64,000 nucleotides of DNA from an uncultured Draconibacterium sp. (GTDB lineage Bacteria; Bacteroidota; Bacteroidia; Bacteroidales; Prolixibacteraceae): assembly GCA_963676815.1 (NCBI GenBank), contig OY781365.1:2456488-2520487 (forward strand), written 5' to 3'. The position numbers and the translations under genes are program-made. How positions within the stretch are numbered: the stretch's first letter is position 1; every line of letters begins with the position of its first letter. Under the pieces are notes generated by a model that had not been told where the DNA came from, did no database searches, and was given only the letters and a program-made list of their open reading frames with translations. Positions 12,001 to 23,800 of this stretch are shown here, piece by piece.

Positions 12001-14544
12001 CTTCAGGATTCGTGTTCGTTTATAGTAACAATTGTTGATGTTACTCCTCCTGGAATTGACATTGGTGGTTGCGTTGATGTGAGCGATACAGCGGCGGCAA
12101 ACAACTGTTCAAAAGTTCCCGCTATAATTGCCGATCCAACTTATTCAGATAATTGCTGGCCTGTTGATTCGTTAACATTAACCTGGACAATGACCGGAGC
12201 CACCACAGGTACAGGCACCGGTTCTGTTGCTGGCGAAAGTTTTAATGTTGGATTAACTACCGTTCAGTATGTTGTTACCGATCCTGACGGAAACAGCGAT
12301 TCTTGTTCGTTTACTGTGCGTATTCTGGATATTACAGCTCCGGGAATTGATATTGGAGGTTGTGTTGATGTTAGCGGCACTATGGATGCAAACAATTGTT
12401 ATGCTATACCACCGGCAATTACTGATCCAACTTTTTCCGATGCTTGTTGGCCGGTGGATTCGCTGGCTTTGAGTTTCAGAATAGAAAACGGAGCATGGGA
12501 TACTACCGGAGTGGGATATGTTTCCGGACTTCAATTCCCGGTTGGAACGAATACGGTTTGGTACATAGTAACCGACCCTGATGGAAATGCTGACAGCTGT
12601 TCGTTTACCGTGGAAATGTTACGCGACGAGATTCCGTGGACAGCAATTACTTGTCCATCTGATCCAGCGCCGATAGTCCTTGGTTCAACCGAGTGTGAAA
12701 GGGCTATTTCTCTTGATCCTCCTGTTGTAAGCGACTATTGTGTTACGGCAACCTACACAATTACCAATGATTTTAACGGACTTTCTGTTATCTCGGATGA
12801 AATATTCCCTGTTGGTATTACGCAGGTTAACTGGACGATAAGCGATAATTCGGGCAACGATACCATTTGTACGGTTTATGTTGATATAAGCGGTGTTCAG
12901 TTGCCAACAATTGCCTGTCCATCTGATGTTGTTCAGCAATTAACAGCCGATCAGTGTGAAGCAATTCCTGTTAATATTCAGGAGCCAGATGTAGATGCTC
13001 CTTGCTGGCCCGACGATTCGCTGGCTATTAGTTATGTAATTACGGGTGCACTTGATTCTATCGGCGTTGGTTCTGTTTCTTCAATAGAGTTTCCGTTCGG
13101 TATTTCAACAGTAACTTATACGGTTACCGATCCTGACGGGAATACCGCTGACTGTGCATTTACAGTTTCAATGTCGCGTCCGAGTATTCCTTCGGCAGTT
13201 GTTAATTGTCCAACTACCTCAGTTACCGTTACTGTAAATCCGAACGAATGTGAGACTTTTGTCGATCTGGATCCACCAACTATTAGCGATCCTTGTTCAA
13301 CAGCAGTATATACAATAACCAACGACTATACGGGAACCAACGATGCCGATACGCTTTATCCAATTGGTATTACAACGGTTACATGGACCATTCGCGATAC
13401 TTTTGGGAACGAGGAATATTGTTTGGTGGATGTTGAAGTAATTGACTTGCTGCCAACCTTAACCTGTCCACCGGATACAGTATTACAGGCCGATTTTAAT
13501 CGGGCATATGCATCGGGTATTACCATTGATCTTCCTTATTTCGAAGACAACTGCGACTCTACGCTAACGTGGACAGTGAGCGGAGCAACCACGCTTTCAG
13601 AACTTGAAAATGATGTATTGGCAAATGGTATTAATGTGGTTCATTATCCCGATACATTTAACCTGGGAACTACTACCATCACCTACACTTTTGAAGACGG
13701 ACACGGAAATATCGTTGAGTGTAGTCATAACATTACTGTGCTTGGTGCACCTGATATTGAATGTCCGCCGGATACAACAATTTACCTCGATGGTTCGGAA
13801 GGTAACTGCGAAGCTACATTCGATCCGGGTGTGGCCGACCTGATACAGGGAACTCCGCCAATTACCTGGACTTATACCATAACTTTCCCCGATGGTTCGA
13901 CACAAACACATACGTATATAAAAGATGCGCCCGATCCGGAACCAAACCCGCTGGGCGTAATGGATTTCCCGCTTGGGGTAACTACTATTGAATGGAGGGC
14001 TGAAAATATTTCCGGATTCGATACCTGTTCGCACTGGATAGAAGTGATCGATACAATTCCTCCAACCTTTACAACAGCACCATACGAAAACTGTGTTGAC
14101 ATGTTGCACTGGGCCGTTTACGATCCTGCTAATGCGAACCCGGTATTTAACCATGTCGATCCGCTGGTAGAAAAATTCCCGGTTGATTACCGAACCATGT
14201 TTGCCGGCGATGAATACCTCGATCTGCTTACATTGGAAGATAACTGCTGCGACTCTACAGAAATGGCCATAAACTGGAGAATTGAATTTAGCGATACTCC
14301 AAATTCAGTAACAGGAGTTATGGAATCTCATCCGAATATTGAAGGAACAGGTCAACCTTCAACTTATACGCATCCGGTAACCGGATTGCCAACCGATATT
14401 TACCTGTGGGGCGATGGTGTGACCTTTACCACTGTGGTTCATCATATTTATTATTGGGTAACCGACTGTAACGGAAATACGACAGAGGAGGTAATGGAAG
14501 AAATTACCATTACACCACGACCACAAATTATTAAACAGAATTAA
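1..14544 (+). CDS. Giant secreted adhesin-like protein (HYR, Ig-like, SprB-like and PKD-like repeats), 5'-truncated by the window edge; no T9SS CTD
   Basis: The frame is open from base 1 (PAISNCPADINQT precedes the Met at 40), so the ORF is partial. It has HYR-type units (CP.D...DNC...FP.G.TT.TW...D..GN...CSF.VT), Ig units (ITTQPASQTDC), SprB-like repeats (SC.G.NDG.I.....GG.G.YE.SIDGG), 6 PKD-like repeats (P.ITG...VC.G...Y.T..GMT.Y.W), 6 CP.D..L..C...AY..W..GF...GGC repeats and 4 CWP.DSL repeats. It ends ITITPRPQIIKQN. Confidence 0.9.
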   Translation, partial: PAISNCPADINQTMSSVVCGDTVVFSEPVFTDNCDGIITATRTDGTGLNSGDVFPEGITTLTWHAVDAAGNDTTCSFDVTILSDGSGPDITCVGNQAECAPYNSTYLKTGTDWDAIATDNCPGVISLNYNLSGASSGTGSSLNNVQFSIGTTTVEWTATDAQGNSSNCSFEVIISEEPGFAQNPVDVSACLNGSATFTASAAGVPAPTYQWRFEGTDIPGETGATLIVNNIQAIDAGNYDVVASSSCGTAISTNAVLSVSSPPEITTQPASQTDCLGESVEFTVAAIGGETPYSYAWQMRPTSSDAWGDAAMVSNIVTTDDVMVVTNIGDSNNPDHAEYRVIVTDVCGNSDTSSVAAITVNTILNALVDTTTVCQDGAATFSVLTSGSVPVLYEWFLNSSPVSNNAVFSGTTTQTLTITNAQVSEGGTYSVRVTFNITQPNNNGAGATTCQSLLIDIGELIVDEGPDIVAGISSQTICPGNAIAQIDLSNANGTPGTTYSWTRDNTGVLTGMPDSGSGNTINGVLNSLTPGTMVTTTFEITALANGCPSATTVTVTVGDTTRPTPATCPTDIIVNTDAGLCDATVSYTVPAFDDDCDGLAIPGTLVEGFASGAQFPIGTTTVKYIYTDAAGNVSDTCSFDVTVADNEQPTAICKDVTVQLDATGVVSITPADIDNGSSDGCGLDSLRIDVSSFDCSDIGDNTVSLTAVDLYGNEATCAVTVTVQDTVKPVVACRDINAYLDVNGQVSITAAAIDNGSTDNCAIASLNLSATDFTCTDLGSNSVTLTATDDNGNSSTCNAEVNVLDTISPNAICRDITIQLNGSGSASITANDVNNGSSDNCGIDTMFISQYTFDCSETGLNLITLTVVDDNGNSSDCVATVTVEDIEKPVARCRDITIQLDANGLAAIVAADIDNGSTDNCGVPTLSVSPNSFNCTNLGANTVTLTATDGYGNDSTCQAVVTVSDDDYPVEITANVSQTTILCNGEPADITISVSGGVGALTYTFNGVSQPINTFSGIGAGTYNWSVTDPFGCGDTTGTFEVVEPEPLQALLTSLDASCSSGNDGEIRISASGGSNVFEFSIDGGASWESDTIFTGLSPGFYDVQMRDANVPTCSVVLDAALEIIILDADITLTDISCYGETDGEITLSNPDGGSGAYQFSINGGTTWEDFVSGSYTYINLMADTFDVWIRDANDLTCVIPLDTMLILTEPDSLYALVDSANITCFGANNGTISLLSSAGGTGGYEYSIDGGTNWSSNSNFAGLIPATYDVRMRDANGCEKILNAALILTEPSILTANIDSSNISCNGGNDGEIILSNPTGGYGSYEFSVDGGTNWQTDTAFLNLYAGTYDVRIRDISDPSCFIILNPTLVLTEPPAMNIAAQPTDITNCFASTVQFGVNINGGAGTITYEWQRMRPSESVFTTISAGPNVLNQDTDSLQVLNIGNADSPNGTQYRVVISDNCTVLTSNLVTLLVNEITDVTPDIEDTEICEGQNYSLQVATSGGIPVSYQWQIDSAGTWENLSNTTVVSGVNSDQLTIAGATPNLTGQYRVVVTFPSTSGDCDLSSESFIRNLTVYPLPVVDSTTDIVVCNGDIVSAINFTGTGTSYDWTNTDASIGLAASGTGDITSFTAVNSDTVPVNAEIVVTPRGLYCDGIADTFLITVNPTPEAIAPSGLVFCEAGPTDPYPLSGIPSNVVFDISGGASIGLADATDVSEISSFTPIVGTATITITPKLNGCTGTAVSFDILVVESPTATISGGDTVCQGGLAASLIFESATGRIVEATYTINGADTNTVVIPAYTPVPLPVPTNNSGVFEYELIQVAYISEPYCSNTDVKDTAQIVVIEPPVPTILGPDEICANIEGNVYTTEPGMTDYVWNVSSGATITAGGDLLSNTITITWDTPGSKNVSVRYTDGNLCSATISTIYPVTVNAVPVPTITGSANVCEGEVITYITQSGMTNYLWDISAGGTISAGGALTDNSVTVEWNGAGDQTVSVNYTNGNGCTADSTTLSITEHDVYVNPEPVPSLTGVDTACTGTEHIYTSDAGMTNYIWTVSAGGTIVSGGTFNDNTATIRWNADGAQSISVNYTDTSGCIATADSTLDVWVHLSPVPVINGPGLICAGSANATYRTDPGMTNYNWTVSAGGTITGGANDSIVYVTWNSIGNHTISVDYTNANNCNAITPSVLAVEAVNEVIPTITGVQTVCEGTTGNYTTESGMSDYNWSVIGGTITAGGDPFSNSVTILWDSAGVQTVSVDYLSINGCNSIVTNHSVTVDPMPHPSITGATSACLDTIVYTYTTEPGMTDYQWIYSAGAIVIGGGSSTDDYIEIQWDALGPQSVNVNYTNLNGCRAITASTQNVVVNELTPVTCPGDTTFCVNAGIVNLVEGTPGGGVFSGPGVSGNTFDPMVADVGLHTITYSYTNDSSCVSSCTFQIRVDPQPIVLDQYLTICSESSVDINLNQLVPDATFSWVAYDNSSGTSVSGFTDCASGCDTMITDILVNSSITEPSYNIGTAGTVVYEVTALHNGCGGTFNIVVTVQPSIIELEHSWNSNFVEDFIEVCAGAQALSSNDLEILHPTRTWGFFNSYGLLTDGDYFDDDNWGVRILYGQSEEGPWVQAPHGEGPFGDGWNDSEGPYQWIVDLAINDRLGYHYFIVELTDPYTGCIKYSNPAILNIVSSLRIEAGGPDFVCTSSSPSPITLDGAYVGGIASTSTGGTWTANVAGGSFSQNFSNPGLATYTPPADFVGEITLTLTSNDPDGSGECVPLTDERIMNVLPPGSFESCLEPATWIESGSPGNNGYLDDNQSPCAINIVGSDNLSGNPGSFGISHCAGAGTLSFDWYFKAPVNKIVWHQEDQQVGSNNGSSSRMYVAPPTNIEVGDLIIVTIHVNDNTGTISDNDGEFIEIRRDTYSGAVTLASFYKIATSADVSRTTDYRFNLSNVSSNDRIYSVRISGADQNQATVIGDNDGIAQYLTYPARDYMNATIPAVSVTNANSMLVSALAINISGSSGDVEYINSPLGSTTMFYEDYETTARVAQELISSTGSAGTQTFSWPSYNSRNRYNMYVAAHSFIINPAIPDVDAANYIIGTTPVMLGNVNGASGSVSVPVSGGENISFAVSTDLNTGGPGELIIYNLDVPNDPPVVSGDTLIEYAECQPVGFDPDTAFTGPTVFDDCDTFSIQTGYPTTTAIISNGCENSQTRTWVYVDDCGLESETFTQRIIWTVIDTITLSCPPSDTLASCSDVADIQVAYDAWKAGFSYIGGCETVFDNLNEFPVLTDLSCGGQLDFTLIVYDACGQVDSCTSHLVIQAAEDLALSCPNDTLLPACTDTAEIRVAYEAWIAGFSYVGGCSTVTTNIDSVPELTDLSCGGEIEFRYVVNLGSPSCPNSIDCYRTFTVEAPVDLHVNVPGDATLPLCSDTASIRAAYDIWVAGFTTTGGCDVQSNIDSIPELPDLTCGGSVSFVFRAWNGEGKCVDSAVDSSSFTVMDPPPLSITCPPDPNLPGCSGALAITAAYNNWVDGFTASGGCDLVTNIDSIPPLGDLLCNGQLVFEFIARSGENVCSTVDTCVATFTIGNADTLAITCPGDTIVEGCSAAEVQTVFDNWIAQFAYTGGCNVNESDLSIYTPPITCGGVVVVNYIVSDECEQTDSCTATFQVNAPELVISVPEDTLLDACSDQLDVDAAFASWISQFGYSGGCNVVATAVDSFTSPNICGGEIVINYSAADVCGQVKTGAAFFAIDFPLLVELNPSFTVPVNTSVYSDALCNYDADPTITGYPTDLYDNCTEDSLHISYNDNVVDGSCAGEYIIYRDWTVVDNCGNDTTQQQIINVLDTIPPVIVCPNDTSEFTDPSQCTKTGMDMGTAAATDNCTPEASIIITNDAPVQLPVGTTTVTWTATDDCGNVSFCTQLVTIVDTIPPNIDINGCQDVTETAAPNNCSKVPDTMLDPVYSDDCWPVDSLVLTYSVNGATTASGTGSAAVVEYNVGVSYVTYVVTDPDGLQDSCSFIVTIVDVTPPGIDIGGCVDVSDTAAANNCSKVPAIIADPTYSDNCWPVDSLTLTWTMTGATTGTGTGSVAGESFNVGLTTVQYVVTDPDGNSDSCSFTVRILDITAPGIDIGGCVDVSGTMDANNCYAIPPAITDPTFSDACWPVDSLALSFRIENGAWDTTGVGYVSGLQFPVGTNTVWYIVTDPDGNADSCSFTVEMLRDEIPWTAITCPSDPAPIVLGSTECERAISLDPPVVSDYCVTATYTITNDFNGLSVISDEIFPVGITQVNWTISDNSGNDTICTVYVDISGVQLPTIACPSDVVQQLTADQCEAIPVNIQEPDVDAPCWPDDSLAISYVITGALDSIGVGSVSSIEFPFGISTVTYTVTDPDGNTADCAFTVSMSRPSIPSAVVNCPTTSVTVTVNPNECETFVDLDPPTISDPCSTAVYTITNDYTGTNDADTLYPIGITTVTWTIRDTFGNEEYCLVDVEVIDLLPTLTCPPDTVLQADFNRAYASGITIDLPYFEDNCDSTLTWTVSGATTLSELENDVLANGINVVHYPDTFNLGTTTITYTFEDGHGNIVECSHNITVLGAPDIECPPDTTIYLDGSEGNCEATFDPGVADLIQGTPPITWTYTITFPDGSTQTHTYIKDAPDPEPNPLGVMDFPLGVTTIEWRAENISGFDTCSHWIEVIDTIPPTFTTAPYENCVDMLHWAVYDPANANPVFNHVDPLVEKFPVDYRTMFAGDEYLDLLTLEDNCCDSTEMAINWRIEFSDTPNSVTGVMESHPNIEGTGQPSTYTHPVTGLPTDIYLWGDGVTFTTVVHHIYYWVTDCNGNTTEEVMEEITITPRPQIIKQN

Positions 14545-14589
14545 GGGAATGAGACACGATATAGACATAGAAAGAAGTTGGAGGCAACT

Positions 14590-15054
14590 TCACCACCTCA
14601 CCGCTGTAAACGCGGTCCCCTCCGCCTGGAAGGCGGAGAAATTAGGGCCGGAGACTTCAATGCTATTGTCATCTCGACGAGGATACGAGGAGAGATCTGT
14701 AACAGTGGAGCAACAAAGTAACAGATTTCTCTCCGTCAGCCGATGGATCGAAATGACAGAGGCCATCACCGGAGCGACTTTCCCCACTTGGGGGGAAATG
14801 TCTGCAGGACAAAGGGGGTCGGTAAAAGTTAATTATAATAACTCTCACCACCTCACCGCTGTAAACGCGGTCCCCTCCTCCTGGAAGGCGGAGAAATTAG
14901 GGCCGGAGACTTCAATGCTATTGTCATCTCGACGAGGATACGAGGAGAGATCTGTAACAGTGGAGCAACAAAGTAACAGATTTCTCTCCGTCAGCCGACG
15001 GATCGAAATGAACGAGGCCATCACCGGAGCGACTTTCCCCACTTGGGGGGAAAT
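14590..15054. repeat. Direct duplication of a 210-bp composite palindromic unit (14590-14799 and 14845-15054, period 255)
   Basis: The two copies are near-identical, starting TCACCACCTCACCGCTGTAAACGCGGTCCCCTCC and ending TTTCCCCACTTGGGGGGAAAT. Each contains a TGTCATCTCGA...TCGAAATGA stem. Confidence 0.95.
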
Positions 15055-15080
15055 TTATCAGAAGATGCTAGTTGATACTT

Positions 15081-15200
15081 TACCCCCCGTATCGGCCACA
15101 CTCCGTCAAGCGGAGTTGGCGGCCTCAACTGTCCCCCTACGTGTAGGGGGACGAGTGGAGCCGGTGGCTTCGAAGAAGATCCGGTGGAAGTCGGGGGGTA
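15081..15200. repeat. Composite palindromic (REP-like) element
   Basis: Terminal inverted repeats TACCCCCCG (15081-15089) and CGGGGGGTA (15192-15200) enclose hairpins CTCCG-TCAAG-CGGAG and GTCCCCCTAC-GT-GTAGGGGGAC. Confidence 0.85.
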
Positions 15201-15370
15201 CGGAGAATTATATGAGAATGACAGAGGCCATCACCGGAGCCGGTGGAGATGGTGTTGAAGTAAAAACAAATAAAAACGCTCATTATTTCCAAAAGGAAAC
15301 CGTGAGCAAACGAGATAATAATTTAAGCCTGTTCTTCCTGATTTCACAACACGCATTGAAATGCGAAAAG

Positions 15371-15416
15371 TTCTCCCCCTTGGGGGAGATGTCCGCCAGC
15401 TGGCGGACAGAGGGGT
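15371..15416. repeat. REP-like double hairpin (CCCC/GGGG family)
   Basis: TTCTCCCCCTTGGGGGAGATGTCCGCCAGCTGGCGGACAGAGGGGT; same layout as 14779-14819, 15877-15935 and 17684-17724. Confidence 0.85.
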
Positions 15417-15517
15417 ATAGGTTAGTAGCTAACAAAAAAAAATCAAGTGCCTATGAAACATGACTAAAGCTTTAAATCTTTCTGCTGAACAGAGTAGGTG
15501 GAGAGTATGGTTCTGTA

Positions 15518-15714
15518 AGGCGACTGGTTTCCCGGTTGCCTGTGGCTACGGAGAAACGTGGTGTTTATTTTCTCTACAACAACAACATGTATTTAGGCGA
15601 TACAACCTATAAATACCACAATTCCCCGGAGCCCGGCCATCTGTATTAGGAAATCAGGGGAAGTGCCACTTGTGGCATACCCCCTTGATTAAGATCCTGA
15701 CCGCTAACTAGCGG
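15518..15714 (+). ncRNA. Candidate structured leader/ncRNA upstream of the 383-aa subunit gene
   Basis: Consecutive hairpins with G-U pairs: 15518-15541, 15558-15619, 15653-15689 and 15701-15714. Not similar to the surrounding repeat families; no known family recognised. Confidence 0.3.
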
Positions 15715-15876
15715 GTGAACAATAATGTTGATGAGCCCCTAACGATTTGACATTTTGAAACTAAGTTTAACTGAATTGAACGAAATAATAACCGATCAAT
15801 TCAAAAAAAGAAAAACACGTTCTGAAGTTTATTGAAAGGAGAATTGCCTGGAGCCTGAGAACCACCGGCCACATTT

Positions 15877-15935
15877 CTCCCCCTCGTGAGGGGGAGTACG
15901 CCGACCGAGCTATGCGAGCGTCGGTGGGAGGGGGT
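15877..15935. repeat. REP-like double hairpin (CCCC/GGGG family)
   Basis: CTCCCCCTC-GT-GAGGGGGAG followed by a CCGAC...GTCGG hairpin and GGGAGGGGGT. Confidence 0.8.
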
Positions 15936-16000
15936 AAACATGCCACACGTAATTTCACCTGATATAAACCAAGAACAGCTAAACATTAAAAATTTTAATT

Positions 16001-17152
16001 ATGAAAAAGCAAATTTTAATTCTAACACTTTTTGTAGCGGCTTTTTTAGTCGGAAACAATGCCTTTGGGCAAAGTGGTCTCGCTAGTGGACATGCAGACT
16101 ATGATTATTTAGATGGTGTACCTACTTACTGCCCAACAGCTCGACCTATTGATTGTGGGGCTGGAGGTGATGCATTAGCTCCATTGCCTGGTGTTTCGTA
16201 TCCTTATACTATTACTTCTCCTACGACAACAGGTAATGTTCATTGGTTTGTAGCAGACCTTACTGCAGATCCTACTATTATAGATGCCCAGGGGAATATT
16301 GCTGCGACTATTGAACCTGCGGATGGAAGCAGTCCTTATATCCTAACTGCCGATGGTGCCTACAATGATGTGACAACTCCTAATACTTCTAAGACTGTTA
16401 ATATTACATGGAAAGCATTTGATGGTCTCGCCAATACTGTAGTGCTGGTTGTGTACAATGTTGACGATGCAAATTGTACCGATAATATGGAAATTTACCG
16501 TATTATTCCTCAATACAACTTTACGCTTGATATTGCCAGTATAGCAGACGATGGTGTTAATGGTGCTGAAATTGATGAAGCCCCTGTTGAAGATTGTGTA
16601 AATCCAATTCAGAGTGCATCTTATGACGGTACAGATTTGACTGTAGATTACGGTACCGATTATGTTTTCTTTGCTGTAAACGCTGCAAACTGGCAACATT
16701 CATGGATGCCTGGTGATTTCTCAGTTACATCAGATTATGCAGGTAGTACTCCTGTTATTACTGGATGGGCATACCCTGCTGATGCCGCAACAACGGGTGC
16801 TTGGAATACTGTAGGAACTGATCCTGTGTTGGCAAGTGGTTATCCTGCAGGAGTTAGTGTTGATGGATTCGTTGCTGAAGCATGTATTATTGTGCGGGTT
16901 CAGGTTGACCATGGATCAACAATTGAAAATATTCTTGGCAATGAAACCATTACTTTAACTGTTAATGGTGATATGTACAATGCGGAAACTTTAACTTATG
17001 ATAATACTTATCCTGATTTAGAAGATGGTGGTGGTGCTGCTTGTCCTAGTGATCTTACATCAGACGCTACGGATTACATACTTACTCCGAGACCTGATAT
17101 TGACGAGAGTACTCCTACTCCATTTGAAACTAAAACACCTAGTGACGACTAG
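16001..17152 (+). CDS. Secreted Ig/PKD-like protein, putative major (shaft) filament subunit
   Basis: 383 aa with Sec signal MKKQILILTLFVAAFLVGNNAFG-Q, beta-rich sequence and paired Cys. It has a CTDNMEIY motif shared with the 18772 protein and a C-terminal YILTPRPDI tail. The CDS is clear; the function is inferred. Confidence 0.85.
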   Translation: MKKQILILTLFVAAFLVGNNAFGQSGLASGHADYDYLDGVPTYCPTARPIDCGAGGDALAPLPGVSYPYTITSPTTTGNVHWFVADLTADPTIIDAQGNIAATIEPADGSSPYILTADGAYNDVTTPNTSKTVNITWKAFDGLANTVVLVVYNVDDANCTDNMEIYRIIPQYNFTLDIASIADDGVNGAEIDEAPVEDCVNPIQSASYDGTDLTVDYGTDYVFFAVNAANWQHSWMPGDFSVTSDYAGSTPVITGWAYPADAATTGAWNTVGTDPVLASGYPAGVSVDGFVAEACIIVRVQVDHGSTIENILGNETITLTVNGDMYNAETLTYDNTYPDLEDGGGAACPSDLTSDATDYILTPRPDIDESTPTPFETKTPSDD

Positions 17153-17154
17153 TA

Positions 17155-17202
17155 GTTATGAATTTTGCTTTTTCATAACCTAAGATCCCGATTTTATCGG
17201 GA
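17155..17202 (+). other. Two hairpins immediately after the stop codon (possible mRNA-stabilising structures)
   Basis: GTTATGAA/TTCATAAC (17155-17179) and TCCCGAT-TTT-ATCGGGA (17186-17202); no U-tract follows. Confidence 0.55.
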
Positions 17203-17210
17203 CAAGATAT

Positions 17211-17342
17211 AGCGCAGAGCGCAAGGGGCAGAGCGCATGGAGCAGCGACTCCGTGCCCTGCTCTTCGCCCTGGGCGATGGATGAAGGACTGAGGTTATGA
17301 AGAAGAAAGCAAAGGATTAAAGATTATTGATTAACGATTAAA
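17211..17342. repeat. Degenerate 7-bp tandem arrays
   Basis: AGCGCAG AGCGCAA GGGGCAG AGCGCAT GGAGCAG with a roughly complementary arm, then GATTAAA GATTATT GATTAAC GATTAAA (17315-17342). Confidence 0.75.
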
Positions 17343-17449
17343 ATGAATGAACCTACCGCCGAATGGCGGAGCACTTTGGAGAGAAGCCCGAAAAAGGGCA
17401 TACGAAAGAAACGGCGTTTCATAAACGAGCTTGTCATTACAATCTTTCT

Positions 17450-17554
17450 TGTCATCTCGAAGGAGGTACAGCTTGTCCCGAACTTTCGGGAACTGAGAGA
17501 TCTGTAACAGCGGAGCAAAGGACTAACAGATTCCTCTCTTCGTTCGGAATGACA
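17450..17554. repeat. TGTCAT...ATGACA palindromic element (third copy of the 14667-14758 family)
   Basis: Outer stem TGTCATCTCGA/TCGGAATGACA and inner stem AGAGATCTGT/ACAGATT. It carries an extra TCCCGAA-C-TTTCGGGA hairpin absent from the other copies. Confidence 0.85.
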
Positions 17555-17683
17555 ATCAATCGGAGAAACGCAACTCATTAAAAATTTAAAATAAGATGAA
17601 ATGTGAACAATAATATACACAACATCTGTAAAGGCAAAGCACCGCCTGGAGAGTCGCGAGTACAGTCTATTGTTCAGAACGTC

Positions 17684-17757
17684 TTTCCCCTCCTGGGGGG
17701 AAATGTCCGAAGGACAAAGGGGGTAACTTGCAACTTGCAGCTTGCAACTTGCAGCTT
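17684..17757. repeat. CCCC/GGGG double hairpin followed by a 7-bp array
   Basis: TTTCCCCTCCTGGGGGGAAATGTCCGAAGGACAAAGGGGGT, then AACTTGC AACTTGC AGCTTGC AACTTGC AGCTT. Confidence 0.85.
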
Positions 17758-17862
17758 CTTCAACGGCACGCTATTGCTAAATATGCGCGACGGGCCACGT
17801 GGCCGTGCACCGGCAACTCGGTTTGCTATGGGCTACGGGCTTGTCACGCTTATTCAAAAATC

Positions 17863-17950
17863 CTCTGTGAGCCTCTGTGTGCACTCTGCGAGCTCTGCGG
17901 TTAAGAAATTTTTACCACAGAGAAAACAGAGAAGCCACAGAGAGCACAGG
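17863..17950. repeat. Inverted pair of ~9-bp arrays
   Basis: The left arm (CTCTGTG/CTCTGCG x4) is roughly complementary to the right arm (CACAGAG/AACAGAG x4). Confidence 0.8.
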
Positions 17951-18070
17951 GTGATTTATACCCATAATCCAACAACGGCATTCCGCACGAACTGCACGGA
18001 AGATGGACGCTTGCAGGAGGAAAAGTTGGAAAGGATGAAGGATGATCGATTAAGTATTAATAATGGCAAA

Positions 18071-18660
18071 AGTGCGCAGGCCTTCCCCTTTAGGGGCCAG
18101 GGGTAGCGCAGGAAAATGAAGAAAAAGTGAATGAGTAATGGTGTGAATGAGCTGACAAAAAACAAAAGACTACTGTGTCCTATGTACCTATGTGGTTCAA
18201 AATACCTGGAGAAACTTAGTGGGTACTTTGAGTCCTTTGTGGTAAAATTTTAAACACAAAGTTGCACGAAGAAGGCACAAAGTCACACAAAGACAAAAAA
18301 GGAGAGTGCGCAGGCCTTCCCCTTTAGGGGCCAGGGGTAGTGCAGGAAAATGAAGAAATGGTGTATGAGTAATGGTGTGAATGAGCTGACAAAAAACAAA
18401 AGGCTACTGTGGCCTATGTGCCTATGTGGTTCAAAATACCTGGAGAAACTTAGTGAGTCCTTTGTGGTAAAATTTTAAACACAAAGTTGCACGAAGAAGG
18501 CACAAAGTCACACAAAGACAAAAAAGGAGAGTGCGCAGGCCTTCCCCTTTAGGGGCCAGGGGTAGCGCAGGAAAATGAAGAAATGGTGTATGAGTAATGG
18601 AGTGAATGAGCTAACAAAAAACAAAAGGCTACTGTGGCCTATGTGCCTATGTGGTTCAAA
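18071..18660. repeat. Tandem repeat, ~2.6 copies of a 225-234 bp composite unit
   Basis: Units start AGTGCGCAGGCCTTCCCCTTTAGGGGCCAGGGGTAG at 18071, 18305 and 18530. The period differs (234 vs 225) because of a 9-bp indel (GGTACTTTG). Confidence 0.95.
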
Positions 18661-18771
18661 AACTTGTAGCTTGAGTCTTGCGACTTGTAGCTTATAAAAA
18701 TGAAAGACAAACAAAAGAAAAAATAAAGACTTGAAGCTTGAAGCTTGCAACTTGAGACTTGTAGCTAAAAT

Positions 18772-19485
18772 ATGGTCCAACTGAAAAAACATATCATCCA
18801 CTTTACCCTGGCAATTTTGCTGGCGGTGCTGGCTGTGGCTAATGCTGCGGCACAGACGCCTATTACCGTGCATGAGTGTGATACCATGACTTTCAGTGTA
18901 AGCAGTCGGCCGAATATTCCGGAAACGCATTTTGTTTGGGATGTTTTTCCGGCCTCTAATCAACCGGTAGAATTACTCGATGAAACATTGGCACTGGATC
19001 GGGCCACAACTTTTGTGGGAAGTCAGTATGCAGGACGAACGGTGCAGGTTACCGGGCTTGCTCCCGGCGAATACTATGTAAGTATACATGTTTGGGATGA
19101 AATAACATGTACAGATAATATAGAAATGTTTGTAATGACAGTGCTGGAATCGGAATTAGAGATGGACATTTATGCCGACGAAGTATGTATTGGCGAGCCT
19201 ACCAATGTATATATCCGCTTTACGGGCCGTGGCCCTTACGAGGTGCAATACACCATTGGCGACCAGGTAACACCAAGTGTGGTAAACGTGATGGGTGGAG
19301 TTCAGGATCCGGAGCTGGTAATTCCGGTTACCGACCCGCTGCCTGTGGGCGAAACTACCTTTTGGATAATACGTGTTGAGGACAATTGTAAAGCTTACGA
19401 GTACGATGTGGATGAACGACCGGGTACGGGAATTCTGATTTATCCAAAACCAAGCCAGTCGCAGATTTACCTAAAAGACGATTAG
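18772..19485 (+). CDS. Small secreted two-domain Ig/PKD-like protein, putative adaptor subunit
   Basis: 237 aa with a Sec signal ending ANAAA-Q, a CTDNIEMF motif, an FTGRGPYEVQY second domain and a C-terminal ILIYPKPSQSQIYLKDD tail. Confidence 0.85.
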   Translation: MVQLKKHIIHFTLAILLAVLAVANAAAQTPITVHECDTMTFSVSSRPNIPETHFVWDVFPASNQPVELLDETLALDRATTFVGSQYAGRTVQVTGLAPGEYYVSIHVWDEITCTDNIEMFVMTVLESELEMDIYADEVCIGEPTNVYIRFTGRGPYEVQYTIGDQVTPSVVNVMGGVQDPELVIPVTDPLPVGETTFWIIRVEDNCKAYEYDVDERPGTGILIYPKPSQSQIYLKDD

Positions 19486-19544
19486 CGAATGGAGAGAGAA
19501 AGGAGTACATTTATTAAGGCAAAAGTTAAAAGTAGAAAGGCAAA

Positions 19545-19587
19545 AGTGCGTAGGCCTTCCCCCTTGGGGGTTAGGGGTAGCGCGGGA
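19545..19587. repeat. Dispersed 43-bp palindromic element (diverged copy)
   Basis: AGTGCGTAGGCCTTCCCCTTGGGGGTTAGGGGTAGCGCGGGA; same family as 18071, 18305, 18530 and 20456. Confidence 0.85.
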
Positions 19588-19653
19588 AAAGGAAGAACTA
19601 GTAAATGAGTTATTGAGGAAACACTTAGCGTCTTAGCGCCTTAGCGAGAAAAT

Positions 19654-20411
19654 AGAATGATGAATGAAGATTAACGAATTGCGGTTTTAGAAGGAATGAA
19701 AAAATGCTTAAATGCATTAATGCTAAAATGATAAAAACTTAGTGTCTTTGAGTCTTCGTGTTGAAAAAGACTGAACACAAAGTCGCAAAGCCACAAAGAA
19801 GAAGAAAGAATGACGAATGTAGATTAACGAATTGCGGTTTTAGAAGGAATTAAAGAATGCTTAAATGCATTAATGTTAAAATGATAAAAACTTAGTGTCT
19901 TTGAGTCTTCGTGTTGAAAAAGACTGAACACAAAGTCGCAAAGCCACAAAGAAGAAGAAAGAATGACGAATGAAGATTAACGAATTACGGTTGTAGAAGG
20001 AATGAAAGAATGCTTAAATGCATTAATGCTAAAATGATAAAAACTTAGTGTCTTTGAGTCTTCGTGTTGAAAAAGACTGAACACAAAGTCGCAAAGCCAC
20101 AAAGAAGAAGAAAGAATGATGAATGAAGATTAACGATTTACGGTTGTAGAAGGAATTAAAGAATGCTTAAATGCATTAATGTTAAAATGCTTAAATAGAA
20201 AAAACTTAGTGTCTTTGAGTCTTCGTGTTGAAAAAGACTGAACACAAAGTCGCAAAGCCACAAAGAAGAAGAAAGAATGATGAATGAAGATTAACGATTT
20301 ACGGTTGTAGAAGGAATTAAAGAATGCTTAAATGCATTAATGTTAAAATGCTTAAATAGAAAAAACTTAGTGTCTTTGAGTCTTCGTGTTGAAAAAGACT
20401 GAACACAAAGT
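19654..20411. repeat. Tandem repeat, ~4.9 copies of a 153/161-bp unit
   Basis: Units start at 19654, 19807, 19960, 20113 and 20274. The longer variant carries one extra 8-bp ATGCTTAA-type subunit. All contain CTTAGTGTCTTTGAGTCTTCGTGTTGAAAAAGACTGAACACAAAGT. Confidence 0.95.
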
Positions 20412-20455
20412 TTCACAAAGGAAAGCACGAGGTTGCTCAAAGATTAAAAAGGAAC

Positions 20456-20498
20456 AGTGCGCAGGCCTTCCCCTTTAGGGGCCAGGGGTAGCGCAGGA
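20456..20498. repeat. Dispersed 43-bp palindromic element
   Basis: AGTGCGCAGGCCTTCCCCTTTAGGGGCCAGGGGTAGCGCAGGA, identical to the head of the 18071 unit. Confidence 0.9.
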
Positions 20499-20575
20499 GA
20501 GAATAAACTTGTAGCTGATTAAAAAAAATGCAACAAAAGCGGATACATACGAACAAGGCAGCGGTGCAAATGGCT

Positions 20576-20827
20576 TTCGCACCGGTGAAAGAGTTCTTCG
20601 CACCAGGTGAATTTGACTTCGCACGACCCAAAGAAGGCTTCGCACGAGGTGAAATGGTCTTCGCACGACCCAAAACTGACTCCGCGTCAGGTGAAATGTA
20701 TTCCGCACTACTGAAAACTGACAGCGCGTCAGGTGAAATGCGCTCCGCTAAACCTGAATTGTGTTCCGCACGACCCGCAACGGGCTTCCGGCCACCAAAA
20801 ATGGCCTCCGCGGAAACAAAAGAGAGA
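20576..20827. repeat. Degenerate 21-bp tandem array (~12 units), inside a possible 115-aa heptad-repeat ORF (20528-20875)
   Basis: TTCGCAC/TCCGC-initiated units recur every 21 bp from 20576 and translate as FAPVKEF FAPGEFD FARPKEG FARGEMV FARPKTD SASGEMY... Confidence 0.85.
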
Positions 20828-20894
20828 GATGCAAAACGATATAGATCTAAAAACAAACGTGTAGCTTGCAACTAACAGCTTGCAGCTAAAAAAC

Positions 20895-23800
20895 ATGCAA
20901 AGGCTAAAATACATACTGATGATTATAGTGCTGGCAGTTACCGCCCGGGTAGCTGAGGGGCAAACCTATGTCATCGACTCTGTATGTGTGGGAGCCGAAC
21001 GCACCTACCGCCTCGATGGTGAAGAGGGTTCGTACTACGAATGGGATATTTACAGCATGCCCGACTCCTCGGTGTTTGCCGACTCGGTTCCTTACACCGA
21101 TTTCAGAGATATTGGCCGGCCAACTGCCAACGATACCACCTGGGGAAGCCAGATTCAACAGCTGTGGGATGTGGTTGGCGAGTTTAATATTGAGGTTACC
21201 CACTGGTCGCTGCATGGTTGCGATACCCTGGAAGTAGGACAGATAAAGGTATTTCCGCCACCCGAAGCCATTGCCGGCCCTAACGATGTAATCTGCGAAT
21301 TTGCCGATATTCAGCTAACCGGCGATACCGCCTGGAACCACAGCAGCCTGTTGTGGACAACTACCGGCGACGGTACCTTTAGCGACGATATGGCCCTGCA
21401 TCCGATATACTACCTTGGCCCTGCCGACAGTGCAGCCAGTAGTGTAACACTGGTGCTCACCTCGTATGGTTTAGCCGAAAACGAAACCTGTATACCCGCA
21501 GTTGACAGTGTAAGCTTTGAGTTTAGTTCGCCGGATATTGTGCTTGCCGGAGCCGATCCGCTGTGTTACAACGAAAACACAGGTTATGTAAGCGCCAACG
21601 TTGTCGGTGGACTGGCACCGTTAATCTACAGCTGGCAGGGACCCGATGGTTTCTCGGCCGGAAACGTTGATAGTATACCCGAATTGGGAGCAGGAATGTA
21701 CGTGCTTACCGTAACCGATGCCAACGGTTGTGTGGATATCGACTCGATACAACTGTTTGATCCTCCGCAGTTGCTGGCAAACATTGATAATGTGAGTCAG
21801 GTTAGCTGTTATGGTTATGCTGATGGTTCAATTGCGGCATCGGCAAGTGGTGGAACCGGTACGCTTACCTATAACTGGACCAGCTTACTGGGTGCAACAT
21901 ATACCGGCGATTCCATCTATAATTTACCGGCCGACACGTATTACCTTACCGTTACCGACGAAAACGGATGTACCTACCTCGATACAGTGCTATTGCCCGA
22001 GCCCGAACTGCTTTTAGTGGATGTTACGGCCGACGATACCATTTTATGCGAGGGCGAAGTGGTAACGCTTCACGGAAATCCGGAGGGCGGAACAGGAGAA
22101 CTAACGCAGAGATGGACCGGAAACGGATCGGTATTCCTCAGCTCGGTTAACGACAGCGTAATAACTTTTGAAGGCGCACCTGTTGGGCGTTATGTATTTA
22201 CTTACACCATTACCGACGAGGCACTTTGCGAGGCATCCGATTCGATTGTGCTGAATGTTTACCCGCCATCTTTTAGCTTCGATAGTTTGGAAGTTTGTGC
22301 CGGAGCGGCTCCTTTCCCCTGGAATGGCCTGATGGTTACCAGCGATGCCGACCGCGATTATGTTGATACGCTGGTGGGAATGAACCAGTGGGGTTGCGAC
22401 TCCATTCTTTCGCTGGCGGTAAAAGTGCTCTTCCCCGAAGTGTACGATACTACAATCTATATCTGTGAAAACGAGGCACCTTTCCAGCCTTACGGAAACA
22501 TTACCGTTTTACCCGACCGCGACAGCATTTACCTCGACACGGTTCGTTATGCTGATTCGGGCTGCGACTCTCTGCTGATTACCATTAATGTATTCTCTAA
22601 TCCGATAACCGATACCTTGTTGTATGCCGAACTTTGTGCGGGTGCCGATCCTTATCAATGGAATAACCGCTGGATACAAACCGATTACAGTGAGATCTAT
22701 CTCGATACTTTGGTGAATCAGTTTGGTTGCGATTCCTTGCTAACCTACGATGTTACCATTATTCCACCCGATACAACTTATGTATTTGATACACTTTGTC
22801 AGGATACCGAACCCTACGTTTGGAATACCATTACAATAGAAACTGTTTTCGACAGTACCTACCAGGTTACGCTTCAAAATCAGTATTTATGCGACTCTGT
22901 TGTTGAATTAAGTGTTCATGTTCTTCCGGTAACCGATACTTTGCTTGACTTAACTTATTGTGCCGGTCCGGGATTTATTACATTGAATAACAGGGATATA
23001 ATTTTTGATGAATCGCGGATATACCTGGATACATTGTATGGAGCGAACCAGTTTGGTTGCGACTCTTTGCTGACTTATGATGTTACCATTCTTCCTCCGG
23101 ATACCACAACAATTGATACCACCATTTGTGAAGGAGAACCGGCCTTTGTATGGGGAGTAAATACCACTCATCTGGTGGATGCTTATACCGATAGTATTTA
23201 TACCGACATATTGCAAAACCAATTTGGTTGCGACTCGATTGTTTATTTAGATGTTGAGATTCTGCGCCCTGTTGTAATTACCGATACTATTGAAGTATGT
23301 GCCAACGAACCTGCTTTTACATGGCACTCGTTTACTATTGCTACTGATGTTGACAGTATTTATGCCGATACACTTTATTACGACGCCGGTTGCGACTCCC
23401 TGCGACTGGAGTTAACCTTGATTTCGAATCCGGTTACCGATACCTTGCTCGACTCAATAATTTGTGAGGGAAGTCCGGTGTTTGCATGGAATAGCGTTAA
23501 CATACAAACTGATTTTAGCCAGGTGTATTACGACACACTGGTTGGGGCAAACCAGTTTGGCTGCGACTCGTTCCTGGTATACGATGTTACTATTGTTCCT
23601 GCAATAAAAGATACCATTCCTGCTGTATTTTGTTTTGGCGAACCGATTGCCAACTGGTACGGTCAAAGCATATCATCAGAAACTGATAGCACATACATTC
23701 ATAACGTTCCCGGCCCGGGAGGCTGCGATACGCTGTTGTATTACGATGTAAGTATTTTGCCGGTAACCGATTCAACCTTATACCTGACGCTTTGTGTTGG

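Follow-up and report, generated by a model that had tools for sequence, protein, structure and literature searches.

A hairpin-module mosaic in the spacers of a Draconibacterium surface-adhesin operon, probably inherited and locally amplified, with likeness to the NIME arrays of Neisseria

Introduction

The NIME arrays of Neisseria consist of dRS3 inverted repeats interleaved with RS elements, and they have been stated not to occur outside that genus (Bentley et al., 2007, PMC1797815). Neisseria also carries the hairpin sequence NTS (CGTCATTCCCGCGMAVGCGGGAATCYRG), and the Ssn nucleases, which cleave single-stranded DNA at hairpins of this sequence, modulate transformation (Chenal et al., 2025, PMC11893778). 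Here we describe three long spacers within a cluster of four co-directional genes in an uncultured Draconibacterium sp. of the Prolixibacteraceae (Bacteroidota), for which the closest known system is, by analogy, the NIME arrays of Neisseria together with their CGTC-tagged hairpins and the nuclease Ssn. The cluster lies in a stretch of 64,000 nucleotides (C1:2456488-2520487, hereafter the window, to which all coordinates without a prefix refer) of a closed, single-contig genome of 6.24 Mb with 39.9% G+C.

Like the NIME arrays, the spacers are long intergenic arrays that mix several short repeat families, occupy syntenic positions with variable content in related genomes next to genes for variable surface proteins, and have a CGTC/TGTC-tagged hairpin as one of their components (PMC1797815). 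Unlike them, they contain no dRS3 consensus (ATTCCCN8GGGAAT), a dRS3/NTS-like hairpin having been seen only in a GIY-YIG locus of one relative (L059). They also carry at least three unrelated classes of hairpins rather than one, are placed inside an operon between co-directional genes, and belong to a different phylum.

Extragenic palindromes are also known as REP and BIME elements and from the REPIN-RAYT systems of Proteobacteria, and heterocystous cyanobacteria have heptamer arrays called STRR. In the intervening sequences of 23S rRNA, a long stem encloses in its loop an open reading frame for a four-helix-bundle protein (“S23p,” PF05635), and gene-less stems exist as well. Based on the nucleotide sequence of the window, the original prediction was that the spacers are mosaics of unrelated palindromic and periodic repeat families without a cognate enzyme gene, and that they serve as a landing or accumulation hotspot for non-autonomous elements. 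We have compared the genome (G000) with those of a congener (G018), Draconibacterium aestuarii (G007) and other relatives.

Results

The Spacers Are the Densest Non-coding Repeat Site in the Genome

As defined by the map of open reading frames and Pfam, the cluster is encoded on the plus strand and begins with a gene for a giant HYR-domain adhesin (6831 aa in the whole genome), which ends at 14544. It is followed by gap 1 (14545-16000, 1456 bp), a gene for a 383-aa protein (16001-17152), gap 2 (17153-18771, 1619 bp), a gene for a 237-aa protein (18772-19485) and gap 3 (19486-20895, about 1400 bp). The last gene, with its ATG at 20896, encodes 2802 aa; its product combines SprB repeats with Ig and cadherin-like domains and has a CHU_C type IX secretion signal. 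The cluster is a conserved surface-adhesin operon of the type IX secretion system (T9SS) type in a Draconibacterium-like member of the Prolixibacteraceae. Its gene order is kept across the genus, where the spacers range from about 200 to 2400 bp, and the nearest named relatives of the locus are D. aestuarii and Maribellus mangrovi.

Tandem arrays called by TRF cover 36% of the segment 14545-20894 (hereafter the region), compared to 1.7% of the genome, and the only bins with a higher density are coding repeats of giant proteins. An ungapped hairpin scan that required at least 19 of 24 pairs recovered 186 loci genome-wide against 30 in a null set of mirror repeats. Five of these fall in the region, which is thereby the top 10-kb bin of the genome, and none in the other 57.6 kb of the stretch, in agreement with the original observation that the housekeeping right half of the window is nearly free of such motifs. 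Since the scan mostly recovers ordinary terminators and the ends of insertion sequences (IS), it serves only as an unbiased measure of density. The region is thus the densest non-coding site of repeats and hairpins in the 6.24-Mb genome. A list of long gaps derived from gene calls based on open reading frame length and a codon score did not enter the evidence, since these crude calls miss genes.

Each of the elements listed originally was found at its coordinates, and many of the modules fold far better than shuffled sequences, with z-scores from -7.0 to -2.6. The modules are enriched here and tied to families of small genes; the even scatter with no enrichment and no gene link that would have refuted the original prediction is not what we observe. 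The associations with small genes that the original prediction named for Bacteroidota at large were borne out in this genome for DUF559, GxxExxY and four-helix-bundle genes (3/3 each), and for GIY-YIG genes in relatives; the GIY-YIG genes of this genome instead have tRNA genes as neighbors. Genes of these four families are absent from the window, and homologs of the small genes are absent from the orthologous operon of six relatives, so that the lack of a cognate enzyme gene was described correctly.

The description as a mosaic also holds, except that about one-third of the gaps is unique, conserved sequence. The unique stretches (roughly 15250-15870, 17154-17440 and 17560-18060) are 75-89% identical to the congener. 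The stretch in gap 1 (15250-15870, plus strand) is 80-89% identical to G018 per 100 nt, which exceeds the adjacent coding sequence. A further palindrome, the hairpin with GGCCACGTGGCC (17794-17805) at 17785-17850 on the plus strand (z -4.4), is likewise unique and conserved and does not represent a repeat family; the surrounding 17785-18025 is 79.5% identical to G018.

TGTCAT Palindromes and GIY-YIG Genes

The first class of modules consists of three TGTCAT palindromes to which no strand was assigned, at 14667-14758, 14922-15013 and 17450-17554. They pair two TGTC-tagged, NTS-like hairpins in inverted orientation; the second has its 3′ arm mutated to ATGAAC, and the third contains an additional internal hairpin. 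Fold z-scores were -4.2 (14667-14758) and -2.6. About 24 full copies are present genome-wide, and their layout is that of an inverted hairpin pair, TGTCAT-TTC...GAA-ATCTGT.

Every copy carries TGTCAT(T/C)TC...GA(A/G)AT and thus the TGTC/AT tag as defined for the CGTC/TGTC-tagged REPs (Di Nocera et al., 2013, PMC3733652), with which the palindromes share the TGTC tag, AT with a hairpin and then ATCTG. Their organization as inverted dimers is likewise shared with the tagged REPs and with the Ssn-related motifs (SRMs; PMC3733652; PMC11893778). With a stem of about 5 bp and a loop of 9-17 nt, the hairpins have a shorter stem and a longer loop than the REP/SRM range (stem 8-9 bp, loop 4-5 nt), and they are not matched by the published SRM pattern.

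In relatives, small GIY-YIG genes are flanked by near-identical hairpins of the TGTCAT type (loci L059, L061, L062, L070, L075, L076). The TGTCAT-type motif had 18 matches in the GIY-YIG loci of relatives vs. 2 in their DUF559 loci, and the former carry motifs such as TGTCATTCCGAACGAAGTGAGGAATCTC and, once, TGTCATTCCCGCGTATGCGGGAATCTC, which is close to the Neisseria NTS. In contrast to SRM-Ssn, no GIY-YIG gene is framed by TGTCAT hairpins in this genome. At C1:3549300-3550700 and C1:2991700-2993000, GIY-YIG genes of about 80-96 aa alternate with tRNA genes or 3′ fragments of tRNAs in tandem units, an arrangement that differs from the hairpin-flanked genes of the relatives. A variant of the palindrome specific to the operon, CTCGA...GAGAGATCTGTAAC, is common to the orthologous operon of relatives, which indicates vertical descent.

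C-Rich Double Hairpins and DUF559 Genes

The second class is built from a C-rich hairpin 1, an abutting hairpin 2 and a GGGGT tail, as in the CCCC double hairpin at 14779-14819 on the plus strand. Further copies are located at 15372-15416, 15876-15935 and 17684-17724. A palindromic composite without assigned strand at 15085-15200 (z -2.9) contains two double hairpins that share the central hairpin GTCCCCCTACGTGTAGGGGGAC, and related copies occur at C1:2806927 and C1:1997993. A regular-expression census with the strict double-hairpin pattern gave 16 matches genome-wide, 6 of them in the region, and 2 in the control. The 43-bp element, with a C-rich hairpin and a GGGGTA tail inside a GCGC stem on the plus strand (18071-18113), is present in five copies that start at 18071, 18305, 18530, 19545 and 20456. 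It shares with the double hairpins a common design of C-rich hairpin, variable hairpin and GGGGT tail, and the two are thus variants of one design rather than unrelated families, as had been thought.

All three DUF559 genes of the genome (3/3) are embedded among C-rich double hairpins; one is flanked by hairpins almost identical to the copies at 14779 and 17684, and the other two break up a tandem array whose 170-bp units are Whalefall-1-like. The C-rich motif was present in 13/27 DUF559 loci from genomes of the family, with 17/25 matches no more than 150 nt from the ends of the DUF559 domain (p = 4e-11), and had no match in 28 GIY-YIG control loci. In relatives (loci L024-L033 and L038), the DUF559 domain often forms the C-terminal end of proteins of 1030-1330 aa, with the C-rich hairpin motif in the coding linker just ahead of the domain and again just behind it.

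The original description of Whalefall-1 (RF01762) presents it as a non-coding RNA that stands alone and is known from a metagenome only (Weinberg et al., 2010, PMC2864571). At its gathering thresholds Rfam identified nothing in the window, and E-value thresholds yielded only a weak match to Whalefall-1, with scores of 18 and 13 bits that fall short of the gathering score (37 bits). Genome-wide, the maximum was 32.7 bits (C1:960471-960532). An alignment of the double hairpins with MAFFT and RNAalifold was poor and uninformative, and single-sequence folds were used instead. In these minimum free energy folds, 16 copies and the Rfam consensus of Whalefall-1 have an equal layout of two adjacent hairpins and a 3′ purine GGG tail. 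The likeness extends to a hairpin 1 with a C/U-rich 5′ arm, an adjacent variable hairpin 2 and compensatory changes. The modules differ from Whalefall-1 in their sub-gathering scores and in being a repeated element tied to DUF559 genes. At C1:960471-962607 (L020), about 13 units of 170 bp with Whalefall-1-like motifs on the minus strand (25-33 bits) form the tandem array; the two DUF559 genes that interrupt it are identical to each other and are encoded on the plus strand (C1:961518-961856, C1:962743-963081).

Word Arrays and Cassettes With GxxExxY and Four-Helix-Bundle Genes

The third class comprises arrays of short words, with periods of 7, 8, 10, 14, 21 and 42 nt in the region. The region holds between one-fifth and two-thirds of the genomic matches to most word classes, one class being exclusive to it. 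Inverted arrays of 7-10-nt words flank the GxxExxY (3/3) and four-helix-bundle (PF05635, 3/3) genes of the genome, and all six cassettes lie between two host genes. The left arm typically starts with an A/T-rich run such as TTTTTACC, and an A-rich run such as GGTTAAAAA typically closes the right arm, at most about 25 nt from the ATG of the next host gene; the word arms end in GGTTAAAAA or TTTTTAACC. The copies in the window are gene-less and take the form of closed hairpins, in the order right arm, loop, left arm, or of solo right arms; at 17862-17950 and in the core of a 153-bp unit, the inverted arrays form a long imperfect stem.

Among the latter is the heptamer array CTTGCAA/CTTGCAG at 17725-17757 (plus strand), a solo “R-type” arm whose CTTG heptamers match an arm of the four-helix-bundle cassette at C1:3595083 (92% over 25 nt). 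Further heptamer arrays are located at 18660-18696, at 18727-18771, running into the ATG at 18772, and at 20855-20891, running into the ATG at 20896. The closed hairpin (CTCTGTG)n-GGTTAAGAAATTTTTACC-(CACAGAG)n at 17862-17950, without assigned strand, has the lowest z-score (-7.0), and its center CTCTGCGGTTAAGAAATTTTTACCACAGAG matches both outer ends of the GxxExxY cassette at C1:45911 at 16/17 nt each. The GGCAAAAG word array (19516-19545, plus strand) resembles the cassette with a four-helix-bundle gene at C1:2931019, whose left arm it matches with 94% identity over 32 nt (E 6e-7). The AATGCTTA octamers (AATGC words) correspond to the arms of the four-helix-bundle gene at C1:25713, and the core of the 153-bp unit (z -2.6) to the cassette at C1:1617432, whose right arm it exceeds by one word. 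Matches of cassette arms to the region in blastn were significant for three arm classes only, and CTTAGCG and several minor arrays have no gene-bearing cassette partner in the genome.

The D. aestuarii genome has a GxxExxY gene that adjoins a closed right-arm/loop/left-arm hairpin. In this locus (L085, 1400-1950), the gene lies between an array of the right-arm type ending in GGTTAAAAAAGG and the closed hairpin, and gene-bearing cassettes thus have at least two topologies. Arrays of TCAGTG heptamers gave 16 matches in D. aestuarii, among them some in its operon gap and in the arms that frame one four-helix-bundle gene, and none in G000 or G018. Conversely, AATGC octamer arrays gave 29 matches in G000 and 94 in G018, each of which has a four-helix-bundle gene framed by them, and none in D. 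aestuarii. The pairing of array and gene is consistent in 6/6 cells (two word classes in three genomes), and seems from the sequences to resemble the REPIN-RAYT and SRM-Ssn patterns.

The cassettes are reminiscent of the 23S rRNA intervening sequences in that the loop of a long stem with inverted flanks contains a small four-helix-bundle gene, and that gene-less stems exist too. They differ by their position between protein-coding genes and by arms that are arrays of short words with the conserved GGTTAAAAA terminus, and the forms in the window are all gene-less, some of them inside-out (right arm, loop, left arm). With REP/BIME and REPIN-RAYT they share palindromes in mosaic clusters between co-directional genes, with REPIN-RAYT the pairing of a dispersed, non-autonomous repeat with a single-copy gene framed by that repeat, and with STRR the tandem arrays of 7-nt units. 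Unlike these systems, there is no RAYT or IS200-type transposase, each family has 1-30 copies, and the word classes are many with no single consensus.

Local Tandem Amplification and Reshuffling Among Congeners

Most of the copy number in the gaps stems from local tandem duplication of composite blocks, each with several types of modules, whose units are 94-98% identical. On the plus strand, a 255-bp unit is present 1.8 times at 14586-15054 and contains a CTCCGCC hairpin, a TGTCAT palindrome and a CCCC double hairpin (97% matches with TRF, 98% in a separate repeat search). A 225-bp unit, repeated 2.6 times at 18071-18661, contains the 43-bp element, arrays of GTGAATGAG and CCTATGTG and a closed CTTTGTG/CACAAAG hairpin. 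The 153-bp unit, repeated 4.9 times at 19647-20411, contains GAATGAN heptamers, the AATGCTTA octamers and a closed CTTnGTG/CACAAAG hairpin. A 42-bp unit is repeated 3.3 times. A periodic TTCGCAC array of 21/42 bp follows on the plus strand at 20560-20820, and a related array at C1:4709327-4709469 adjoins a DUF559 gene.

The congeners have the same families in the gaps of the same operon in other numbers and at other positions. There are at least nine TGTCAT palindromes of the operon-specific variant in the D. aestuarii operon, and the homolog of the 153-bp unit in G018 is a 124-bp array in gap 2 rather than in gap 3. Searches of 17 modules against the genome with blastn gave only partial matches elsewhere, and we rejected high-copy dispersed repeats or IS-derived miniature inverted-repeat transposable elements (MITEs) as candidates because the dispersed copies are only partially similar. 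Of the hallmarks of MITEs, the inverted termini are present, and no target-site duplication or empty site was identified; the partner genes are nuclease-like or four-helix-bundle genes, not transposases. That the families recur in the congeners with altered numbers and positions, and that the dispersed copies are only partially similar, suggests that an inherited set was reshuffled in place rather than that elements landed repeatedly. Of the proposed landing or accumulation hotspot, it is thus mainly the accumulation that is supported, as the copies are mostly tandem and the families probably inherited.

A second mosaic is located at C1:4708500-4728400 (L018, 4.72 Mb) in an operon for polysaccharide biosynthesis with spacers of 1.3-1.7 kb and composite tandem units of about 470 bp. 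It contains the 43-bp element in reversed orientation, half a TGTCAT-like arm, a 21/42-bp array of the TTCGCAC type and a DUF559 gene.

Transcription Signals and Conserved Structures Around the 383-aa Gene

The Bacteroidota -7 consensus TAnnTTTG is absent from both strands of 13406-20960, where about 8 matches are expected from the average of the window, which may partly be because the plus strand is strongly purine-rich. The purine content of the sense strand in the three gaps lies at the 87th, 97th and 99th percentile of 695 co-directional gaps. Terminators on the plus strand of the gaps show no excess over chance, and internal promoters or terminators were accordingly rejected as an explanation for the gaps. 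Since both signals are lacking, the spacers are probably transcribed together with the genes of the operon.

Open reading frames of 304, 167 and 115 aa in the gaps have no Pfam match and are not conserved as proteins. Because their DNA is about 80% identical to that of relatives and the predicted proteins only 40-46%, we consider the gaps to be non-coding.

A structured element (17160-17309, plus strand; z -5.6) follows directly after the stop codon of the 383-aa gene and is conserved in six species, as is the invariant TTGCTTTTTCATAACC after the stop. The gene is also bracketed by an 18-nt inverted repeat (15999-16016 and 17161-17178, 94% complementary), of which the upstream arm is the start-codon region, TTATGAAAAAGCAAATTT, and the other arm lies right after the stop. 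As an alternative, a start-like decoy, GGTTATGAAGAAGAAAGCAA, at about 17292-17313 is available for local pairing with the downstream arm (hairpin z -5.6). Furthermore, 5/7 relatives have a double hairpin that precedes the ATG of the 383-aa gene by 60-125 nt, and its hairpin 2 differs in sequence in each of them with the pairing retained by compensatory replacement.

We also compared identity along 15300-17400 with the corresponding loci of two relatives (L017 and L013). Relative to G018, the non-coding flanks are 80-89% identical and the 383-aa gene about 60% (40% at the amino acid level), whereas relative to D. aestuarii the pattern is reversed, with 55-73% in the flanks and 68-84% in the gene. 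These patterns are consistent with a mosaic ancestry of the 383-aa gene, as has been reported for surface genes flanked by NIME arrays (PMC1797815).

Discussion

Based on the identity of the modules, their links to genes, their enrichment and their local tandem duplication, we favor as the probable explanation that the gaps are an inherited, locally amplified mosaic of the NIME type that flanks genes for variable surface proteins. Each gap would consist of a unique, conserved and strongly structured backbone and a variable filling of gene-less hairpin modules of three classes: the TGTCAT inverted hairpin pairs, of the kind that flanks small GIY-YIG (Ssn-type) nuclease genes; the modules of C-rich hairpin, variable hairpin and GGGGT tail, of the kind that brackets DUF559 nuclease genes and has the Whalefall-1 architecture; and the arms of 7-10-nt words with GGTTAAAAA or TTTTTAACC ends, of the kind that brackets GxxExxY and four-helix-bundle genes. 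The modules may have entered as decayed cassettes, or as empty hairpins mobilized in trans, before the congeners diverged. They may then have multiplied and been reshuffled in place through slippage or unequal recombination, and might persist since a transcribed, untranslated spacer tolerates them.

Several observations weigh against this explanation. The published SRM pattern had 9 matches genome-wide and none in the window, which is the level of the shuffled control, and strict membership in the SRMs is therefore not claimed. The small GIY-YIG genes of this genome have no TGTCAT flanks and sit among tRNA genes. The motif census, in which the region has 32/140 of the genome-wide matches and 10/11 families, is biased, as the families were defined from this same region; the TRF and hairpin scans are unbiased and rank the region first among non-coding DNA despite this bias. 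The matches of the CAGAG/CAAAG arrays consist of short words and 17-nt termini with indels of whole words and do not amount to alignable homology at genome-wide significance; as they are not significant in blastn, these links are stated as word-and-terminus matches only. The co-occurrence of arrays and genes was sampled in three genomes and for two word classes. Finally, we saw neither an insertion event nor an empty site or a duplicated target, and hence we can only infer how the modules entered.

It is conceivable, if on balance unlikely, that the modules are functional RNA elements of a polycistronic mRNA, acting as processing sites (RNase III-like), stabilizers or masks of start codons, and would thereby set the ratio of the 383-aa major subunit to the giant adhesins. 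In line with this reading are the lack of promoter and terminator signals and the purine bias of the sense strand, the word arrays that extend straight into two start codons, the retained pairing in the double hairpin upstream of the 383-aa gene, and the conserved hairpin after its stop with the inverted copy of the start region. The reading is more difficult to reconcile with the copy number and position of most modules, which vary between congeners, with the 43-bp element that is opposite to transcription in the polysaccharide operon, and with palindromic modules that are identical on both strands. Such functions are nevertheless compatible with the inherited mosaic, as a case of co-option. 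We consider it rather unlikely that the arrays act at the DNA level, as recombination zones like the NIME arrays or as targets of small nucleases, and promote the replacement of adhesin-subunit alleles with incoming DNA. The opposite identity patterns of G018 and D. aestuarii across the 383-aa gene point in this direction, as do the syntenic arrays of variable content, known from NIME arrays next to surface-protein genes (PMC1797815), the cleavage of single-stranded DNA at NTS hairpins by nucleases that modulate transformation (PMC11893778), and the second mosaic in an operon for polysaccharides, likewise a surface structure. The identity patterns are, however, derived from two pairwise comparisons, and diversifying selection on the 383-aa protein combined with a constrained non-coding backbone could yield an equal result.

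An active landing hotspot, into which mobile miniature elements insert repeatedly and independently because their target sequence is present at these sites, seems improbable. About 20 independent instances of modules from at least ten families are crowded into 4.5 kb, and a preferred site is hinted at by the GGTTAAAAA terminus common to the word arms, which abuts start codons both in cassettes with a gene and in solo arms. However, the dispersed copies are not near-identical, with only partial blastn matches, the multiplicity is mostly tandem, the operon-specific TGTCAT variant shared with the relatives indicates vertical descent, and neither target-site duplications nor empty sites were seen. 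We give next to no credence to assembly errors or to gaps that encode repetitive proteins. It is true that the 304-aa open reading frame spans the 255-bp repeat and that the large periods (255, 225, 153 and 42) are all divisible by 3. Coding repeats were nevertheless rejected because the 153-bp array has stops in every frame and the open reading frames in the gaps have no Pfam match and low conservation as proteins. As for assembly errors, the units differ by 2-6%, homologous arrays are present in the independent assemblies of relatives, and the genome is a single closed contig.

A bolder extension of the inherited mosaic, which we regard as doubtful, is that each class of hairpins is the repeat that one particular small protein, encoded at another site of the genome, recognizes, so that the arrays in the operon would be fields of targets in trans. 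The TGTCAT hairpins would then be recognized by Ssn-type GIY-YIG proteins, the C-rich hairpins by DUF559 proteins and the word arrays by GxxExxY or four-helix-bundle proteins, with a 7-8-nt word for each paralog. If this were the case, the proteins might bind or cut single-stranded DNA at these sites and drive both the turnover of the arrays and the swapping of adhesin-subunit alleles. The locus would represent a counterpart in the Bacteroidota of NIME plus Ssn with four protein families, and the Whalefall-1 “RNA” would be reinterpreted as a repeat of this kind.

Mosaic arrays next to surface-protein genes have hitherto been treated as a speciality of Neisseria, and the arrays described here are present genus-wide in a gliding/T9SS-type adhesin operon of a marine member of the Bacteroidota. 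The locus offers a natural system for asking about the processing of operon mRNA and the replacement of adhesin-subunit alleles. Among the ties between hairpin classes and genes, only that of GIY-YIG/Ssn has a published biochemical basis; those of DUF559, GxxExxY and four-helix-bundle genes are testable predictions on families of unknown function. A simple protein-array test is offered by the presence or absence of two word classes together with four-helix-bundle genes. The AATGC-framed four-helix-bundle gene of this genome (C1:25713-26018) has an in-frame TAG, and its G018 ortholog (C33:321927-322264, L107) is intact.

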